Below, piece after piece: positions 1 through 13,417 of a DNA stretch of 13,417 bases. Location: IMG/VR virus record IMGVR_UViG_2526164690_000043, positions 1-13,417 of that record; one strand, 5' to 3'. Origin of the DNA: a virus. Lineage: Duplodnaviria; Heunggongvirae; Uroviricota; Caudoviricetes. The notes beneath the pieces are model-generated. The model saw nothing but the letters and a program-made list of their open reading frames with translations. It was not told the DNA's origin and did not search any database. Within the stretch, counting starts at the first letter, position 1, and every line of letters begins with the position of its first letter. A program made the translations under genes and the position numbers.

Positions 1-1230
1 ATGAGCAGAGCACTTAACAAACTGAGCGATACACAGCTGAGGAAAATCAACGGCACACCCGCCCAAAAAACAGCCTTTCTTAATGACGGTGGAAACCTGA
101 GCGTCAGGCATTCAACCAGCGGCCTTTTAACCTGGTATTTCACCTACAGGGCCGGAACGGGAAGGGGAGCACGACCGGAACGGATTAAGCTGGGAAATTA
201 TCCTGATCTGAGTCTGAAAGCTGCCAGGGAAAAAGCGGCACAGTGTCGCGCTTGGCTTGCTGAGGGGAAAAATCCACGTCATGAGATGAATTACACCGTA
301 CAGAAAGCGTTAAAGCCCGTAACGGTTGGCGATGCGCTTACCTACTGGCTTGAGTCTTACGTAAAGGAAAACCGCGTGGATTATGCCGCCCTGAAAAAGC
401 GCCTTAATAATCACGTAATACAGCACATTGGTGCTATGCCGCTGGATAAATGCGAGCTACGGCACTGGCTGGCCTGTTTTGACCAGGTGGCAAAGCGAAC
501 GCCTGTTACTGCCGGATTCTTGCTACAGACGTGCAAACAGGCGCTTAAGTTCTGCCGGAGGCGGCGCTATGCAATCAGCAACGTTCTTGATGATATGAGT
601 GTGGCGGACGTTGGGAAAAAACCGGATATAAGCGAGCGTGTCTTAAGCACCAAAGAACTTGGCGAATTATTGCAGGCACTGGACAAAAAAATATTTTCCC
701 CTTACTACGTCGCACTAATCCGCCTCCTGATTGTTTTTGGATGCCGGACGGTAGAACTGAGGTTATCGGAGATCAGCGAGTGGGATTTTACCGAAATGCT
801 CTGGACCGTGCCGAAAGAACACAGCAAAACGAAGGTGGCAATATTCCGGCCCATACCGGAAGCAATACTGCCGTTCGTCACGCAGCTGGTGGAGCAGAAC
901 AGGCACACGGGCTTATTGCTGGGGGAAGTGAAACAGGAAACAAGCGTGTCGCAGTACGGCAGATTAGCGCACAGGAGGCTAAAACACCCTCACTGGTCAC
1001 TGCATGACATCCGGCGCACCTTTACAACGATGCTGAACGATTTAGGCGTGGATCCTCACGTCGTGGAGCAGCTTACAGGTCATCAGATGCCAGGGATGCA
1101 ACGAGTCTATAACCATTCCCGTTATCTGGATGCGAAACGTGACGCGCTGGATATGTGGACGGAGCGGTTAGGGATACTGGCGGGAACACATGAAAACGTA
1201 ACCACATTGCCAATAGCCAGAGAAATATAA
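1..1230 (+). CDS. int: Tyrosine integrase, P4-like (N-terminal arm-binding DUF4102-type domain plus C-terminal catalytic domain)
   Basis: 409-aa ORF. The N-terminus (LSDTQLRK..DGGNLSVRHSTSGLLTWYFTYR..LGNYPDLSLKAAREKA) fits the P4-integrase arm-binding signature. Catalytic landmarks are GCRTVELRL (Arg), LHDIRRT (His-x-x-Arg) and VYNHSRY (Tyr). Confidence 0.95.
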   Translation: MSRALNKLSDTQLRKINGTPAQKTAFLNDGGNLSVRHSTSGLLTWYFTYRAGTGRGARPERIKLGNYPDLSLKAAREKAAQCRAWLAEGKNPRHEMNYTVQKALKPVTVGDALTYWLESYVKENRVDYAALKKRLNNHVIQHIGAMPLDKCELRHWLACFDQVAKRTPVTAGFLLQTCKQALKFCRRRRYAISNVLDDMSVADVGKKPDISERVLSTKELGELLQALDKKIFSPYYVALIRLLIVFGCRTVELRLSEISEWDFTEMLWTVPKEHSKTKVAIFRPIPEAILPFVTQLVEQNRHTGLLLGEVKQETSVSQYGRLAHRRLKHPHWSLHDIRRTFTTMLNDLGVDPHVVEQLTGHQMPGMQRVYNHSRYLDAKRDALDMWTERLGILAGTHENVTTLPIAREI

Positions 1231-4365: not shown

Positions 4366-4665
4366 ATGAAACTTAAATATTCTGGCTTAACTGCCAGTGG
4401 CAACACTCACCCTAAATTTACGCGCGGCGATATTTACCGCGACCAGTACGGCGGCACGGTAATGATTAAGGGCGTGGCGGGACGGTGCGTAACCTACCGC
4501 CGTGAAGGTTACGAATATGATTGCGTGATGCCTGTTTATCAGTTCCGGCGTGATTTTTCTCTGGTACAGACCGCGCCGCATAACGTGCCCACCAGCAACG
4601 CCAGGGCACGGGCAAACATCCAGAAGCTGAAAACCATGATTAACGGATTCAGGGGCAAGAAATGA
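4366..4665 (+). CDS. Hypothetical protein, possibly DUF4222-like
   Basis: GDIYRDQYGGTVMIKGVAGRCVTYRREGYEYDCVMPVYQFRRDFSLV resembles the small beta-rich DUF4222 pattern seen in enterobacterial prophages. This rests on memory only. Confidence 0.45.
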   Translation: MKLKYSGLTASGNTHPKFTRGDIYRDQYGGTVMIKGVAGRCVTYRREGYEYDCVMPVYQFRRDFSLVQTAPHNVPTSNARARANIQKLKTMINGFRGKK

Positions 4666-6059
4666 AAAGCGCACCGAACTTAAAAAAACAGCCTTACGAC
4701 AAGATGACCGAAGTCATTATTTTTGCGGGTAGTGATGCCTGGGCACATGCGAAACAGTGGCAGGAACAGGACGGGCGACTGGCTGGCGATAATGTGCCTC
4801 CCGTTGTGCTGGCTGATGATCAACTGGATGAACTGGCAGACCTGAGAATCATCGACGAGGGGCGCTATTGTGTCCGGCTGTACAAGGCAGGCCACATCAG
4901 GCCATCAAATATTAATGCCATTGCGCACAAGCTGGCAGCGGCAGGTGTACAGGATGCGAATTACTACCCCGATGGGATGCACAGCCAGAAGCGGGAGAAC
5001 TGGCGCGAATATCTGGAACGGGAGCGCGGGGAAAAGCAGGAAGAAAAAGGCCACCAGCGCAAAACAAAGCTACCGATGAGCGTTGGTTCTGCCGGATATG
5101 ACACGCAACTGGATTACGTGGTTAAGGGGATTATTCCGGCGGTATCGCTTTGCAGCATATACGGGGCGAGCGGTTCCTATAAATCGTTCCTTGCGGGTTC
5201 GTGGGCGTGTCACGTTTCCACGGGCCGCCAGTGGGGAGGCCGCAGGGTGGCGCATGGCGCTGTTCTCTATGTGGTTGGTGAAGGCGGTATCGGCGTTCCG
5301 CGTCGTGTAAAAGCCTGGGAGGTTGTGCACGGTGAGCAGGTGAAAAATCTTTACCTTGTAAACCGTCCCATCTTTCCGGCTGCCCCGCTTGATGTTGATG
5401 AAATGGTTATCGCTGCCCGTCAGGTGGAGCGGGAAACGGGTAAACCTGTTCGAATGATTATTCTGGATACGCTGGCGCGCTGCTTTGGCGGCAATGATGA
5501 AAATGACTCCCGTGATATGGGGACGTTTATCCGTGGGTGTGACGAACTGAAACGACGCACAGGGGCCACGGTGCTGGTGGTTCACCATTCCGGCAAGGAT
5601 GAGACGAAAGGCGCGCGCGGTTCCAGTGCATTTCGTGCTTCGCTGGATGCTGAATACCGGATACGCAGGGAGGACGCAGGAAGCGAAGCGCTGGTTATCT
5701 CATGCACCAAAATGAAGGACGCGGAGGAACTCAAAGAAGCCGCATATGACTTACGCGTGGTGGAGCTTTTTACCGACGCTGACGGGGAGTTAATCACGTC
5801 GCTGGTGGTGGTGGATAAGCCGCGCCCTCCCGTTGAACTGGAGCGCATCGAGGAGGCAGGGAACAAGACGGAGAATCACGCCGCGCTATGGCAGTGCATC
5901 AGAACACGAACAGCACACGGGGAGGCGTGCACTATCGCCCTTCTCCGCGACGATATGAAAAAGCTGGGGTATGAGATGAAGCACTTCCGGCGCTGGCTGT
6001 ACAAGCTGGAAAATGATGGCGTAATCGTTATTGACGGTGATGACGTGCGCCCGCTGTAA
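4662..6059 (+). CDS. Replication initiator/helicase, RepA-like RecA-fold ATPase (AAA_25 type) with a C-terminal winged-helix-like tail
   Basis: 465 aa. Walker A is YGASGSYKS and Walker B is VRMIILDTLARC. VLVVHHSGKDETKGARGSSA is typical of RepA/DnaB-like AAA_25 proteins. ATGA-coupled to the upstream ORF, and the iteron array begins at its stop codon. Confidence 0.85.
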   Translation: MKSAPNLKKQPYDKMTEVIIFAGSDAWAHAKQWQEQDGRLAGDNVPPVVLADDQLDELADLRIIDEGRYCVRLYKAGHIRPSNINAIAHKLAAAGVQDANYYPDGMHSQKRENWREYLERERGEKQEEKGHQRKTKLPMSVGSAGYDTQLDYVVKGIIPAVSLCSIYGASGSYKSFLAGSWACHVSTGRQWGGRRVAHGAVLYVVGEGGIGVPRRVKAWEVVHGEQVKNLYLVNRPIFPAAPLDVDEMVIAARQVERETGKPVRMIILDTLARCFGGNDENDSRDMGTFIRGCDELKRRTGATVLVVHHSGKDETKGARGSSAFRASLDAEYRIRREDAGSEALVISCTKMKDAEELKEAAYDLRVVELFTDADGELITSLVVVDKPRPPVELERIEEAGNKTENHAALWQCIRTRTAHGEACTIALLRDDMKKLGYEMKHFRRWLYKLENDGVIVIDGDDVRPL

Positions 6060-8070: not shown

Positions 8071-8123
8071 ACGATCGGTGCGATTGCTGATTTCCTTATG
8101 AAAAACGGTTGAGTGTTTGCCGC

Positions 8124-8160
8124 GTCCTGGAGTTCCTTACTTAACCCCAGGACTTTTTTT
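8124..8160 (+). terminator. Intrinsic terminator-like hairpin abutting the capsid start codon
   Basis: GTCCTGG (8124-8130) pairs with CCAGGAC (8147-8153), and 8132-8134/8143-8145 can extend the stem. T7 (8154-8160) follows, then ATG at 8161. The only SD-like element for the capsid gene (AGGA, 8149-8152) lies in the 3' arm of the stem. Confidence 0.65.
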
Positions 8161-9318
8161 ATGCCGAGAATAATCGAATTACGCCAGCAGAAAACCGCCA
8201 TTAAAAATCAGATGCGCGACATGCTGGAGAACGCGGAAAAAGAAAACCGCAGTCTTAACGATGCTGAGGGCGCAAAATTTGACGAATTACGCGCTAAAGC
8301 TGAATCCCTCGATAAAGACATTTCCCGCCTTGAAGCCATTGCAGACGAAGAGCGCAGCAAGCCAGGTAAAAGCAGTCAGACCACTGACCCCGCAGAACTA
8401 CGCAACTACATTCTGACAGGTGAAACCCGCGCATTAAGTACAGGCGTTCCCGCTGATGGTGGTTATACCGTTATCCCTGAACTGAACACCGAAATCATGC
8501 GAATGCTGGCGGATGAATCCACCATGCGCCGCATCTGTACCGTGAAGAAAATCAGCAGCAACGAGTTTAAGCAGCTTGTTTCCGCTGGCGGTGCGACCGT
8601 TAACCACGGTGAAGAGGGTAAGGCACGCGAACAGACCAGCCCCCCGCAGATTAACGAGGTGAGCATTAAGCTGTATCCGGTCTATGCGTACCCGCGCACC
8701 ACACAGGAAATCGTGGATTTTTCCGATGTGGACATCCTTTCATGGCTGACGGGTGAGATTGGCGACACCTTCACGGAAACCGAAGAAAGCGATCTGGTTG
8801 TGGGCGACGGTGACAAAAAAGCAAAAGGTTTTTTATCCGTACCCCGTGCAGAGAAGAACGACAAAGAGCGTGATTTTGGTACGTTGCAGGTAATTAAACC
8901 TTCCGAATCTCTGGCGTGGACATCTGCGGACCCGCTGATCGACCTGAAATTTGCATTACGTAAAAATAACCGCAAAAACGCGGTCTGGGTGGTTAACTCC
9001 ACGACGGCGGCAAAACTTCAGAAGGTGAAGAACGCGAACGGTGATTATATCTGGCGCGACCGTTTACAGGCGGGTGATCCTGATACGTTGCTGGGCCTTC
9101 CGGTCGAATATCTGGAGTTTATGCCTGATAACGTTATTGCCCTGGGTGACTTCAAACGCGGTTACTACATTGTTGATCACGAAACAGGTGTTCGCACCAG
9201 ACCGGACAACCTCACAGAGCCGGGCTTCATCAAAATTTTCACGCAGAAATATTTAGGCGGTGGCGTGGTGGATTCGAACGCGATCAAGATTCTGGAACTG
9301 CCACAGGACGACGATTAA
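8161..9318 (+). CDS. Major capsid protein, HK97 fold/family, with an N-terminal coiled-coil delta (scaffolding) domain
   Basis: 385 aa from the ATG at 8161 (the track ORF starts at GTG 8113, inside the leader). The N-terminus IELRQQKTAIKNQMRDMLENAEKENRSLNDAEGAKFDELRAKAESLDKDISRLEAIADEER is typical of HK97-family delta domains. The body carries family-like stretches such as GGYTVIPELNTEIMRML and ..NAVWVVNSTTAAKLQKVKNANGDYIWRD..LLGLPVEY. Confidence 0.92.
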   Translation: MPRIIELRQQKTAIKNQMRDMLENAEKENRSLNDAEGAKFDELRAKAESLDKDISRLEAIADEERSKPGKSSQTTDPAELRNYILTGETRALSTGVPADGGYTVIPELNTEIMRMLADESTMRRICTVKKISSNEFKQLVSAGGATVNHGEEGKAREQTSPPQINEVSIKLYPVYAYPRTTQEIVDFSDVDILSWLTGEIGDTFTETEESDLVVGDGDKKAKGFLSVPRAEKNDKERDFGTLQVIKPSESLAWTSADPLIDLKFALRKNNRKNAVWVVNSTTAAKLQKVKNANGDYIWRDRLQAGDPDTLLGLPVEYLEFMPDNVIALGDFKRGYYIVDHETGVRTRPDNLTEPGFIKIFTQKYLGGGVVDSNAIKILELPQDDD

Positions 9319-9931: not shown

Positions 9932-11146
9932 ATGTGGCCTTTTCAGAAGAAAAAAAAGAGCAGCGCTAGCATGACGCTTGATGAGTTTATGGCGCTGGCT
10001 GGCACATCGAACACGGGGGCGGGTGAGTACGTATCATCGGGGACAGCGGAATCACTGCCCGCCGTCATGAACGCCGTCACGGTCATCTCTGAGGCGGTGG
10101 CTACCATGCCGTGTTACCTGTACCTGGTACGCAATGAGAAGGGGAAGGAGGCCCGAGAGTGGCTTGATTCTCATCCGGTCGATCACATCCTCAACGAGCG
10201 CCCGAACGCATGGCAAACCCCCTACCAGTTTAAGCGAATGATGATCCGCCACTGCCTGTTAAACGGTAATGCTTATGCGGTGATTCAGTGGGGGCGTGAT
10301 GGTTTTCCGGTGGCTTTACATCCTTACCCGCCGCAGTCGGTGAACGTTGAGCAGACAGGTGAGCATAACTGGCGCTACTGCATCACTGACGCCTACACCG
10401 GAAACACCCGCAACTATTTACCGTGGGAGGTTCTCCACCTTCGTTACTCCACGGATGACGGTTTTATGGGGCGCTCACCTGTAACCATCTGCCGCGAATC
10501 GCTGGGGCTTGGGCTGGCCCAACAACGCCACGGCGCGAGCGTGATGCGTGATGGCATGATGGCGGCAGGGGTTATCACGTCAGGCGAATGGCTGGACGGC
10601 GTGAAGGGCAAACAGGCATTAGCCGCACTGGAACGCTACAAAGGGGCCAGAAACGCCGGAAAAACGCCCATCCTTGAAGGGGGTATGAGCTATCAGCAGC
10701 TGGGCATGAGTAATCAGGATGCTGAATGGCTGGCCTCCCGTCGCTTCACCATTGAAGACATCGCCCGAATGTTCAACGTCTCGCCGATTTTTCTGCAGGA
10801 ATACAGCAACAGCACCTATAGCAATTTCAGCGAGGCAAGCCGCGCATTTCTCACCATGACGATGCGCCCGTGGCTGGCGAACTTTGAGCAGCAGATAAAA
10901 AACGCCCTGCTGGTGGCCTCGCCTGTACCTGGTATCCGGTATCAGGTGGAGTTTGTACAGCGCGGACCTGTTACGGGCCACACCTGGCGAACGCTTTGCC
11001 ACCTATGAACGCGGCATCAAATCCGGCGTTATGTGCCCGAACGAAGCCCGCGAACGTGAAGGGCTGTCCCGCGTGATGGTGGTGATGAGTTCAGCCAGGC
11101 ATGGAAACAGGAAGTAAAAATCAGCGAGGGAGAAAAACCGGAATGA
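9932..11146 (+). CDS. Portal protein, HK97 family, with two compensating frameshifts in the 3' end as given
   Basis: ORF 9932-11008 (358 aa) has portal-like content (..HPVDHILNERPNAWQTPYQFKRMMIRHCLLNGNAYAVI.., ..FTIEDIARMFNVSPIFLQEY..). The conserved C-terminus is readable only by moving to another frame from ~10953 (LYSADLLRATPGERFATYERGIKSGVMCPNEAREREGLS) and back at ~11070 (..DGGDEFSQAWKQEVKISEGEKPE*, stop 11144-11146). That stop overlaps the next gene's ATG in an ATGA. Confidence 0.88.
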
Positions 11147-11481: not shown

Positions 11482-11774
11482 CAGAAGAACTTATCACCCT
11501 GGAAGAAGTGAAACTCCATTGCCGCATCGATGGCGACGAGGAAGACCAGTTAATCAGCGGATACATTGCCGCATCGCTTGAGGCGTGCCAGATACATATA
11601 GGCAGGCGCTTTGATGACGGGCTGGAGTTCACGCCGGCCATAAAGATTGGCTGCATGATGTTTATCGCTCACCTGTACGAGAATCGCCAGCTGGTAGCGG
11701 ATAACGCAAAAACACGCGTACCCATGACGATAGGCGCACTCTGGACGGCTTACCGTGATGTGGGGGTGTACTGA
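11478..11774 (+). CDS. gp6-like head-tail connector (adaptor) protein (Phage_connect_1)
   Basis: LITLEEVKLHCRIDGDEEDQLISGYIAASLEACQIHIGRRF....IAHLYENRQ matches the gp6-like signature (l.evK.hlRid.d.eD.li..li.aA......y.gr......lva.lYenR). ATGA-coupled upstream. Confidence 0.85.
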   Translation: MTEELITLEEVKLHCRIDGDEEDQLISGYIAASLEACQIHIGRRFDDGLEFTPAIKIGCMMFIAHLYENRQLVADNAKTRVPMTIGALWTAYRDVGVY

Positions 11775-12213
11775 TGCCGTGGCAACCATTAAGACGATGT
11801 ACAGAACCAGGCTGTAACAGGCGCGTTAAGTCCGGCAAGTGTGAGGAGCACAGGCGGGCGGCATGGCGTGCAGAGGATGCCAGACGAGGACACCGCCGCG
11901 CGCGTGGGTACTCCAGACAGTGGGAAAAATACCGCGCCATGTATCTGAGTAAAACCCGTTATGCGTGCGATGCCTTGAGAAGGGGATATATACGCCCGCC
12001 GTGGTGGTGGATCACATTATCCCGATTAATGGCGGTGATGATGTTCTCTTCTGGCCCGAATGGAACCATCAGCCATTGTGCCAGGCGTGTCATAACCAGA
12101 AAACGAAGTGGCTTGATCCGGCAACAAAAAGCAAGCGTGCCGCAGGTGGATTTCGTGAAGAGGAAGAACGGGCCGCTAACCGCAATAACTGGATGTATGA
12201 CGCTGATGAATGA
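11774..12213 (+). CDS. HNH endonuclease (HK97 gp74-like packaging accessory nuclease), frameshifted as given
   Basis: The N-terminal part (11774 onward) reads MPWQPLRRCTEPGCNRRVKSGKCEEHRR...RGYSRQWEKYRAMYLSK. The core, in the -1 frame (open from 11953; track ORF 11965-12213), reads NPLCVRCLEKGIYTPAVVVDHIIPINGGDDVLFWPEWNHQPLCQACHNQKT (H-N-H motif). The junction is the A4 run at 11951-11954, and A5 would fuse the two as ..YLSKNPLCVRC... Confidence 0.85.
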
Positions 12214-12379
12214 GCGGGAACAAAACCGCCTTATCCGTGGACTTATAAGGCAGCGTGACGCATGGAAGACACAGGAAACAGGGCATAAAGATAAAGCGTC
12301 AGGACGCGCAGAACGCATCACAGCGAAGCGATTAACCGACCGTGACCGCGAGGTTATGGAATGTTTCCGCAATCGCTGA
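12197..12379 (+). CDS. Possible small charged protein (57-60 aa) between HNH and the cos/terS region
   Basis: This is the distal part of track ORF 11774-12379, which becomes an independent ORF once the HNH frame is corrected. ATGs at 12197 and 12206 overlap the HNH stop. It reads NEREQNRLIRGLIRQRDAWKTQETGHKDKASGRAERITAKRLTDRDREVMECFRNR. No family recognised. Confidence 0.35.
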   Translation: MTLMNEREQNRLIRGLIRQRDAWKTQETGHKDKASGRAERITAKRLTDRDREVMECFRNR

Positions 12380-12501
12380 TGAGGCTGTATGACGGGGTGG
12401 GGGGCGTTTTCAGGACAAACCCGACCCCGCCGGGCACCGAACGCCTCCTCAAATTTTTATGCACGGGAATTTTTTGAAAAATAATCTGGCGAAAAATAAG
12501 C
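12380..12501. other. Candidate cos / terminase recognition region
   Basis: This is the only sizeable non-coding gap in the packaging module, and it lies just upstream of terS, as in HNH-dependent HK97-like cos phages. A G-rich block ACGGGGTGGGGGGCG (12392-12406) faces a C-rich block CCCGACCCCGCCGGG (12420-12434). Phased A/T tracts follow (AAATTTTTAT, AATTTTTTGAAAAATAAT; 12451-12485). Confidence 0.45.
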
Positions 12502-12858
12502 ATGGCAAGACCACCGAAAGCCCCCGCCTACCTGAATGACATCGCCGTGAAGCAGTGGCGGGAAAAATCGCGGCAGCTTGCGGAACGGGGAGACCTTACC
12601 CCCGCCGACTGGAGTAATCTGGAACTGTATTGCGTCAATTACTCGATATACCGGAAAGCCGTCGCAGACCTTGCGGCGCGCGGGTTCAGCATTGTTAACA
12701 GTCAGGGTGGCGAGAGCAGAAACCCCGCATTAAGCGCAAAATCCGACGCTGAAAGAGTGATGATAAAAATGGCCTCCTTGCTCGGTTTTGACCCGATAAG
12801 CCGCCGTAAAAATCCACCGGAAACAGAAGAAGAGGACGAGCTTGACCGCCTGGAATAA
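12502..12858 (+). CDS. terS: Terminase small subunit, P27 family
   Basis: PKAPAYLNDIAVKQWREKSRQLAERGDLTPADWSNLELYCVNYSIYRKAVADLAARGFSIVNSQGGESRNPALSAKSDAERVMIKMASLLGFDPISRRK follows the P27-family TerS pattern (P..L...a...W..l...l...g.l...D...l..yc......r.a...l...G.......g....nPa........l......efGltP.sR.k). Confidence 0.9.
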   Translation: MARPPKAPAYLNDIAVKQWREKSRQLAERGDLTPADWSNLELYCVNYSIYRKAVADLAARGFSIVNSQGGESRNPALSAKSDAERVMIKMASLLGFDPISRRKNPPETEEEDELDRLE

Positions 12859-13417
12859 GTACGCAGAAGACGTAAAAACGGGCAAAATTCCGGCCTGTAA
12901 ACGGCTGAAACAGGCCGTTAAACGGTACTTTTCGGACCTTGAAAGCCCCCTTTACACGTTCGATCGTGAGGTTGTGGAGCGGTTTATTGCCTTTTCCAGG
13001 GTGTGCCCGCACGTAAAAGGGCCGATGCGTGGCAGACCCATTGAGCTGGAGCCGTGGCAGCAGTTCGCCTTTGCGTGCATCCTCGGCTTTAAGGTTAAGG
13101 CCACCGGACGGCGCAAATACACGAGCGCCTTTATCGAAGTGCCGCGCAAAAATGCGAAATCCACGACCGCCGCGATTCTGGCTAACTGGTTTCTGATTAT
13201 GGAGAACGGTCAGCAGGATATCTACACCGCAGCGGTGAGCCGTGACCAGGCGCGGATCGTCTTTGATGATGCGCGTCAGATGTGCCTTTTATCCCGACCG
13301 TTACGCAGGCGGGTGAATATTCAGGCGCATAAGGTGATACACCCGAAAAGCAACAGCCTGTTAAAGCCGCTGGCAGCAAAAGCGGCAACCATCGAGGGAA
13401 CAAACCCCAGCCTTTCC
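12842..13417 (+). CDS. terL: Terminase large subunit (Terminase_1-like ATPase domain), 5' partial, running off the window
   Basis: The frame is open from 12800 to the window end and is absent from the track because it has no stop. The likely TTG start at 12842 has GAGGA 5 nt upstream and overlaps the terS end. It reads TAWNKYAEDVKTGKIPACKRLKQAVKRYFSDL..HVKGPMRGRPIELEPWQQFAFACILGF..IEVPRKNAKSTTAA (Walker A-like PRKNxKS)..IYTAAVSRDQARIVFDDA. Confidence 0.9.
   Translation, partial: MTAWNKYAEDVKTGKIPACKRLKQAVKRYFSDLESPLYTFDREVVERFIAFSRVCPHVKGPMRGRPIELEPWQQFAFACILGFKVKATGRRKYTSAFIEVPRKNAKSTTAAILANWFLIMENGQQDIYTAAVSRDQARIVFDDARQMCLLSRPLRRRVNIQAHKVIHPKSNSLLKPLAAKAATIEGTNPSLS

Follow-up and report, generated by a model that had tools for sequence, protein, structure and literature searches.

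Where is the DNA of a satellite that builds its own capsids cut for packaging? Capsid-forming PICIs (cf-PICIs), a widespread kind of satellite, produce their own capsids and package no DNA but their own. A search of the open-access literature, including two cf-PICI preprints, found neither mapped termini nor a mapped cos site for any cf-PICI, those of the EcCIEDL933 type included. The stretch of DNA analyzed here (the window, 13,417 nucleotides or 13.4 kb in all) is an EcCIEDL933-type cf-PICI of E. coli. It is 99.2–99.7% identical, over its full length, to islands in the chromosomes of E. coli O103, O111 and O157:H7, which are inserted between roxA and phoQ. An earlier note, made from the letters alone, had proposed that the terminase of the island recognizes and cuts its DNA in a non-coding gap upstream of terS, and had read a G-rich block, a C-rich partial complement and a series of A/T tracts as the elements of the site.

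Packaging genes and state of the island

Genes were called from Pfam matches and from the RefSeq annotation of near-identical copies (Table 1). The 122-nt non-coding gap at 12380–12501 was confirmed, bounded by a stop codon at 12377–12379 on the left and by the terS ATG at 12502 on the right. Its description as the interval between the HNH gene and terS holds on the terS side; on the left, the reading frame ending at 12379 belongs to a 60-aa hypothetical protein, and the HNH frame stops at 12213 in the window. The 60-aa ORF overlaps the end of the HNH gene, and its C-terminus (..RDRE.xECFRNR) is kept in many genera. It is missing in the Citrobacter, Serratia, Xenorhabdus, Aeromonas and Leclercia relatives, in which the HNH gene ends just before the G-run, and it might be the ‘hypothetical gene 1792’ of EcCIEDL933.

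Table 1. Genes of the window and elements of the terS-upstream gap, with majority fractions (MF) over 31 relatives
Feature	Position	Strand	Sequence	Basis or conservation
Integrase	1–1230			Pfam/RefSeq
RepA-like helicase	4662–6059			Pfam/RefSeq
Major capsid protein	8113–9318			Pfam/RefSeq
Further window genes: prohead protease, portal, head-completion and connector proteins				Pfam/RefSeq
HNH endonuclease gene, frameshifted	11774–12213	+		Comparison with O157:H7 strain 2571 and O103 RM8385
Conserved hypothetical ORF, 60 aa; its stop codon is the left edge of the gap	12197–12379	+		RefSeq in relatives
terS, P27-family small terminase	12502–12858	+		Pfam Terminase_4, E = 1.3e-23
terL, large terminase, 5' part only (runs off the window)	12842–13417	+		Pfam TerL_ATPase; RefSeq of a 99.7% identical locus
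G-run	12394–12404	+	GGGGTGGGGGG; consensus GGGGTGGGGG	MF 0.96; 34–44 nt 5' of predicted nick region
Block after G-run	12407–12419	+	TTTTCAGGACAAA; family motif TTTCAGGACAAA	MF 0.82
Variable spacer, 13 nt (most of the C-rich arm of the earlier note)	12420–12432	+		MF 0.54
GG.ACC	within 12433–12438		GG.ACC	MF 0.90
Predicted cosN 10-mer	12438–12447	+	CGAACGCCTC; family consensus CGCCCGCCCC	MF 0.85; placed within about 3 nt
Block directly 3' of predicted cut	12448–12467	+	CTCAAATTTTTATGCACGGG; family CTCAAATTTTTACGCACGG	MF 0.93
Predicted TerS recognition site, G then T/A-tract	12462–12476	+	CACGGGAATTTTTTG	+15 to +29 from predicted cut
G plus T7 run, then family block	about 12467–12487		GAAAATAAAAC after the T7 run	MF 0.83
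Distal cosB-like region	12477–12487	+	AAAAATAATCT; family GAAAATAAAAC	Alignment columns 96–106

The HNH protein was expected to cooperate in the cut. An HNH domain is indeed encoded upstream of the gap, but in this copy its gene is frameshifted by the loss of one A from an A5 run at 11947–11951 (A4 in the window). The N-terminal 60 codons and the HNH domain (DHIIP...WNHQPLCQACHNQK) therefore lie in different frames, with the domain, and the sole Pfam HNH match, in the frame of 11965–12213. The 201-aa ORF that spans 11774–12379 gave no Pfam match; it is a chimera of the HNH N-terminus, an out-of-frame stretch and the downstream 60-aa ORF. In the O157:H7 and O103 relatives the HNH gene is intact and encodes 146 aa. 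The frameshift is one of 52 positions that differ between the window and its closest relative, the 99.7% identical island of O103 RM8385. About a dozen of these are single-base indels, located at 2640, 6192, 7862, 7895, 9365, 9397, 9944–9967, 10956, 11068 and 11951, several of them outside homopolymers. Indels also disrupt the protease and portal genes, the portal ORF being 358 aa in the window versus 403 aa. Such changes indicate either an error-prone source assembly or a decaying, non-transferable copy. With HNH frameshifted, this particular island may leave the site uncut, and it would be unable to cut its own cos if the changes are real. Within the gap, identity to O103 RM8385 is 100%, and 250 E. 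coli genomes show at least 99%. Two positions, 12449 (T for C) and 12489 (G for A), set the gap apart from that of O157:H7 strain 2571, which is closely related to EcCIEDL933.

Conservation and anatomy of the gap

A TerS protein scan restricted to one genome per species recovered 33 loci from about 25 genera of Enterobacterales plus Aeromonas. The 31–32 homologous terS-upstream regions from this set align well, and the first 300 nt of terS, with majority fractions of 0.90, 0.92 and 0.64 at codon positions 1, 2 and 3, provide an internal scale. The gap resolves into a series of conserved non-coding blocks interrupted by one variable stretch (Table 1). The block directly 3' of the predicted cut, with which the packaged left end would begin, is as conserved as terS codon positions 1 and 2 and is still conserved in the Pasteurella element Pmp8. 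The columns of the T-run within the predicted TerS site are invariant among the relatives. Since the non-coding blocks that flank the spacer are as conserved as the first two codon positions of terS, they must be under purifying selection as DNA. The spacer at 12420–12432, the most variable stretch of the gap, is the one part free of such constraint.

The same layout is found in Pasteurella multocida element Pmp8, which the gap profile matches with 56.7 bits; the cos region is internal in both the Pmp7 and Pmp8 records, so the ends of those records are uninformative. HK97/HK106, SfV, ST64B, AbIPP1 and Pmp8 each have a counterpart of the G-run at the same distance. Two distant phages with a P27-type TerS, Acinetobacter phage AbIPP1 and Salmonella phage ST64B, carry a G-run, a C-rich block and a T-tract upstream of terS. 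Their layout suggests that a common cos architecture may accompany HNH-dependent packaging across the Gammaproteobacteria.

The window also holds a direct repeat, CACCGAACGCCTCC (12435–12448) and CACCGAAAGCCCCC (12512–12525, codons 4–8 of terS). A functional link between its two copies was rejected: the C-block of a locus matches its own terS start at 9.06 of 14 positions and the terS starts of other loci at 9.02 of 14. As the two copies do not co-vary across the 31 loci, the repeat is most likely a by-product of the Pro-rich TerS N-terminus (MARPPKAP).

Comparison with mapped cos sites

Two related systems provide experimentally placed ends. The cos of phage SfI is nearly identical to that of SfV, and its 10-nt cohesive end, TGCCCGCCCC, was defined by run-off sequencing of particle DNA (PMC3636060); we take its overhang to be 3' from the ‘gap’ reported in those run-off reads, the polarity not being stated in the paper. 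HK97 has a 10-nt 3' overhang, and its TerS recognizes a minimal site at +15 to +29, CTAACCCGATTTTTT, by way of a G and the A-tract next to it (PMC11331095). In HK97-type phages the cohesive end is CGCCGCCAAA, which forms the last 10 nt of the HK75 record and is annotated there as the cos site. In pairwise alignments the SfI and HK97-type mapped ends fall on the same ten cf-PICI columns, which correspond to window positions 12438–12447. A colinear alignment with a single 1-nt indel places the HK97 TerS site over the invariant T-run (about 12462–12476); the T-run starts at +23 in the window versus +24 in HK97. Upstream, the block at 12407–12419 aligns with TCAAATCT...(A/G)ACC of HK97 and SfV. 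A cut within the variable spacer, as the start of the SfV record would have it, was set aside in view of the mapped SfI overhang, which lies 7 nt downstream of where that record begins.

The correspondence was also recovered when the gap profile was searched with nhmmer against the complete circularized genomes of SfV (37 kb) and HK97 (39.7 kb). In both, the top match spans the cos junction in the same orientation, with 9.7 bits in SfV and 9.2 bits in HK97 against next-best scores of 5.0 and 4.4. Such scores are weak, and an unrelated 10.0-bit match to the profile occurs in the window itself, at 4394–4435 inside a DUF4222 gene, where it is probably due to chance and sets the noise level. The weight of the SfV and HK97 matches therefore lies in their location and not in their score: the match covers about 80 nt of about 75 kb searched, and it fell on cos twice independently. 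Alignments to the cos regions of SfV, HK106 and HK97 scored higher than every one of the 500 shuffles (z = 4.7–6.4).

The proteins that would act on the site are related as well. The island TerS is 36% identical to SfV TerS (E = 5e-21), and shows no detectable sequence similarity to gp1 of HK97. A full-length orthologue of the island TerL is 30% identical to SfV TerL and 26% identical to HK97 TerL, while the HNH protein shares 36% identity with the SfV HNH protein and 38% with HK97 gp74. The locus thus presents what marks a cos of the HK97/SfV type, namely a position between HNH and terS, homologous TerS, TerL and HNH proteins, and a G-run, a C-rich 10-mer and a G plus T-tract.

The closest likeness is to the cos sites of SfV, SfI and ST64B, which occupy the same position between the HNH gene and terS and show the same order of elements: a G-run, a spacer of about 30 nt, a C-rich 10-mer, a T-run and a second A/T-rich block. 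In SfV and ST64B the interval reads GAGGGGAGGGGCGGG as the G-run, then TCAAATC...GACC, a spacer, TGCCCGCCCC, an (A/C)TCG(T/A)-tract and the second A/T block. The ST64B core, ACTGCCCGCCCCCTCGAATTTTTA, is nearly identical to the cf-PICI consensus ACCGCCCGCCCCCTCAAATTTTTA. The window differs from these three in its 10-mer, in the unrelated sequence between the G-run and that 10-mer, and in the second A/T block, which is GAATTTTTTGAAAAATAA in the window and GCGAAAAATGAAATTTAA in the SfV/SfI/ST64B type. Moreover, SfV, SfI and ST64B are phages, whereas the window element is a 15-kb tail-less satellite. The cos of HK97, HK106 and HK446 consists of a G-run, ATCAAATCTTCAAAACC, a spacer and CGCCGCCAAA followed, beyond the cut, by GTTTGAATTTAACGCTAACCCGATTTTTTT. 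Its alignment with the window is colinear and nearly gap-free over the span that begins with the G-run, includes the overhang and closes with the TerS site (G plus T-tract); the sequence of the overhang and the flanks of the TerS site differ, and HK97 has 320 nt of non-coding DNA between gp74 and cos where the whole gap of the window measures 122 nt.

The position of the cut within this framework is predicted to within about 3 nt. The likely cohesive end is not the C-rich block of the earlier note (12420–12434); the conserved C-block just 3' of it, at about 12438–12447, is the better candidate, given that both mapped overhangs align there. The cut may nevertheless be shifted about 18 nt upstream, into the spacer. 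The window 10-mer differs from the family consensus at 3 of 10 positions, while the spacer contains CCCGACCCCGCC, which resembles that consensus and makes such a position conceivable.

The proposed hairpin and A/T tracts

A different anatomy can be read from the window sequence itself, in which the G-rich block would pair with the C-rich one to mark the cut by a hairpin or cruciform, and phased A/T tracts would recruit IHF-like bending proteins as in the cosB of lambda. The two blocks are present as described, ACGGGGTGGGGGGCG at 12392–12406 and CCCGACCCCGCCGGG at 12420–12434, and they do contain a 10-nt inverted repeat (12393–12402 with 12420–12429) that is complementary at 9 of 10 positions. 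An equally good repeat arises in 49 of 1000 mononucleotide shuffles of the gap (4.9%), which makes it marginal by chance. The DNA fold of 12385–12455 is not more stable than dinucleotide shuffles (z = +0.36), 123 of 200 shuffles folding at least as well.

The relatives bear on the pairing more directly. In the alignment of 32 homologous gaps, 64% of cells form the proposed pairs, a value equal to that of controls in which the 3' arm was slid by +1 (62%) or +2 (65.5%). The C-rich arm lies in the least conserved columns of the gap, with a majority fraction of 0.54 compared with 0.64 at terS third codon positions, and the Klebsiella, Aeromonas and ECO95 sequences contain no complementary arm. The percentage paired and the covariation do lie slightly above column shuffles (reached in 13/500 and 4/500, respectively). 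Being somewhat C-rich in many relatives, the spacer can usually form some G:C pairs with the long G-run. Register-specific, compensated pairing of the kind expected of a hairpin or cruciform was not found in the relatives. The RNAalifold consensus fold pairs the G-run with the conserved C-block instead, with no covariation; because both of these elements are invariant, this pairing is no evidence either way, and we treat the G-run and the conserved C-block as two separate elements.

The A/T tracts, at 12454–58, 12470–75, 12477–81 and 12492–96, are present and strongly conserved. With centers separated by 16.5, 6.5 and 15 nt, they lack the 10–11 nt spacing of helically phased tracts. The IHF consensus WATCARNNNNTTR has no match, with up to 1 mismatch allowed, on either strand of 12370–12520, and the idea of IHF-like bending is not borne out. 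Both features of a lambda-type cosB with an IHF bend, an IHF site and A-tracts phased at 10–11 bp, are thus absent from the region. Taken together, these observations make a hairpin flanked by IHF-bent tracts very unlikely. Instead, the tracts match in position the G plus A-tract element that has been mapped in HK97 as the one recognized by TerS.

Lambda cos (cosQ-cosN-cosB) has a 12-nt 5' overhang and an IHF site, I1, and is cut with no HNH protein. The gap of the window would share with it a three-part logic of upstream element, nick site and downstream TerS-binding region, and differs from it in having no IHF consensus and in a predicted overhang that is probably 10 nt long and 3'.

Ends of a relative packaged in virions

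Matches to the gap in the phage database were confined to a 1.6-kb contig and to ‘Escherichia phage vB_KppS-Ant’ (LR881103.1). The latter is a 16.5-kb linear record obtained from virion DNA by way of Nextera XT libraries and SPAdes assembly; its paper mentions no re-ordering of the sequence, and its authors report more than 99% identity to a region of K. pneumoniae DSM 30104. It was published as a filamentous ssDNA induced prophage. The record encodes int, primase, capsid, portal, HNH, terS and terL; by this gene content it is a cf-PICI, the excised island of K. pneumoniae DSM 30104 and evidently the KpCIDSM30104 element of He et al. Downstream of terL it also carries a 765-aa gene annotated as a tail tape-measure protein, a surprise in a satellite that has no tail.

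The record ends ...GGGGTGGGGGAGGTTTTCAGGAC, the equivalent of window position 12416, and starts 22 nt before the terS ATG. The integrated copy in ATCC 13883, which we take to be the same strain as DSM 30104, has 69 extra nt between these two ends, and they bracket the predicted cut. Of the 69 missing nt, 20–30 would lie on the left side of this cut and 39 on its right. An assembly break in the gap with the loss of tens of bases on both sides is what tagmentation at fixed physical ends produces, and does not fit a circular or permuted template; the contig ends bracket the termini and do not define them. He et al. attributed a high-molecular-weight band of KpCIDSM30104 DNA to the annealing of cohesive cos ends. 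In a scan of IMG/VR for the conserved motif, most matches were integrated prophage-type predictions in which the motif is internal. One metagenome contig of 16,325 nt, the size of a cf-PICI (IMGVR_UViG_3300029726_000242), has an end 8 nt upstream of its G-run (locus end at 1985) and not at the predicted cut.

This break bears on two further readings of the gap. Conservation alone is silent on the nature of the constraint, and a stretch directly upstream of terS, followed by an AGGAA-type ribosome-binding site, could be imagined to control transcription or translation of terS-terL, as a promoter, a terminator or antiterminator, or an RNA leader, and to have no part in packaging. We consider this even less probable than the hairpin: no sigma-70-like promoter or intrinsic terminator was found on the + strand, Rfam gave no match at E up to 1, and the consensus fold lacks covariation, while phages of the HK97 and SfV/SfI types have this layout at the physical ends of their genomes, and the break in the virion-DNA contig of the Klebsiella relative falls in this very gap. 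The least probable reading, headful (pac) packaging that is initiated near terS and leaves no fixed cohesive ends, has its precedent in the many satellites (pac SaPIs) that encode their own TerS and package by headful, with pac sites often in or near terS, but is opposed by the HNH gene beside the terminase genes, a hallmark of HK97-type cos packaging, by the homology of TerL, TerS and HNH to those of cos phages with mapped ends, by the cohesive-end concatemers of KpCIDSM30104 DNA (He et al.), and by the unique ends of the vB_KppS-Ant contig within the gap, where a permuted or closed assembly would have been expected.

A model for packaging and helper specificity

Conservation of the gap, homology of the packaging proteins, the positional match to mapped sites and the assembly break in the virion DNA of a relative, each of them seen directly, lead us to propose that 12394–12487 is very probably the cos site of this cf-PICI, of the HNH-dependent HK97/SfV type; we put the probability of this reading at roughly 0.8. 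The central claim of the earlier note, that the island's own terminase recognizes and cuts its DNA here, is well supported by the comparative evidence and by that break.

By positional homology with SfI/SfV and HK97, from which every step of the model derives, packaging would proceed as follows. The P27-family TerS would bind the G plus T-tract about 15–29 bp downstream of the cut (about 12462–12476), and its binding would position the nuclease of the island TerL, stimulated by HNH, on the conserved C-rich block. Staggered nicks would then leave a 10-nt 3' cohesive end, predicted to be CGAACGCCTC (12438–12447, within about 3 nt), and packaging would run rightwards, through terS and then terL, into the island's own small capsid. 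The conserved G-run 34–44 bp upstream would be a further part of the site and may serve as a cosQ-like termination element or as a docking element for TerL or HNH. The 13-nt stretch that had been seen as a complementary arm would be an unconstrained spacer.

HK106 and HK446, the published helper phages of EcCIEDL933, carry the HK97 cos, with the same geometry and with a different overhang (CGCCGCCAAA) and TerS site, and the helper TerS has no detectable sequence similarity to that of the island. The proposal that the island's cos is distinct from that of its helpers is upheld by these sequences. In published genetics, mutation of each of the packaging-module genes of EcCIEDL933 abolished island transfer, with the exception of hypothetical gene 1792, whose mutation affected it severely, and mutants in the phage homologues of packaging genes had no effect on EcCIEDL933 transfer. 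Overhang and TerS site differ between helper and island on a common geometry, in keeping with the published finding that phage and island packaging exclude each other. A distinct cos as an explanation of exclusive self-packaging would thus be consistent with both the sequences and the published genetics.

One further, tentative possibility concerns how this specificity is divided. The three-part geometry is common to systems built on HK97 gp1 and on a P27-family TerS, which show no detectable sequence similarity to each other, so it would be the conserved TerL-HNH pair, and not TerS, that sets the geometry, with the G-run as its docking or termination element. Discrimination between satellite and helper would then lie in about 25 bp, the overhang plus the TerS site. 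If true, cos specificity would be easy to swap.

Significance for cf-PICI biology

What is new here is the predicted cos of a cf-PICI; the kind of site, that of HK97 and SfV, is already well known, and no new type of mechanism is involved. Where a cos had been placed only vaguely, upstream of terS, the analysis predicts a nick region, a TerS site and an upstream G-run at near base-pair level. Satellite and helper would share a common cos geometry and differ in roughly 25 bp. Such a prediction may be of use for swaps of packaging specificity, for transduction tools based on cos plasmids, and for the annotation of cos sites in the many cf-PICIs of Enterobacterales, Aeromonas and Pasteurellaceae.
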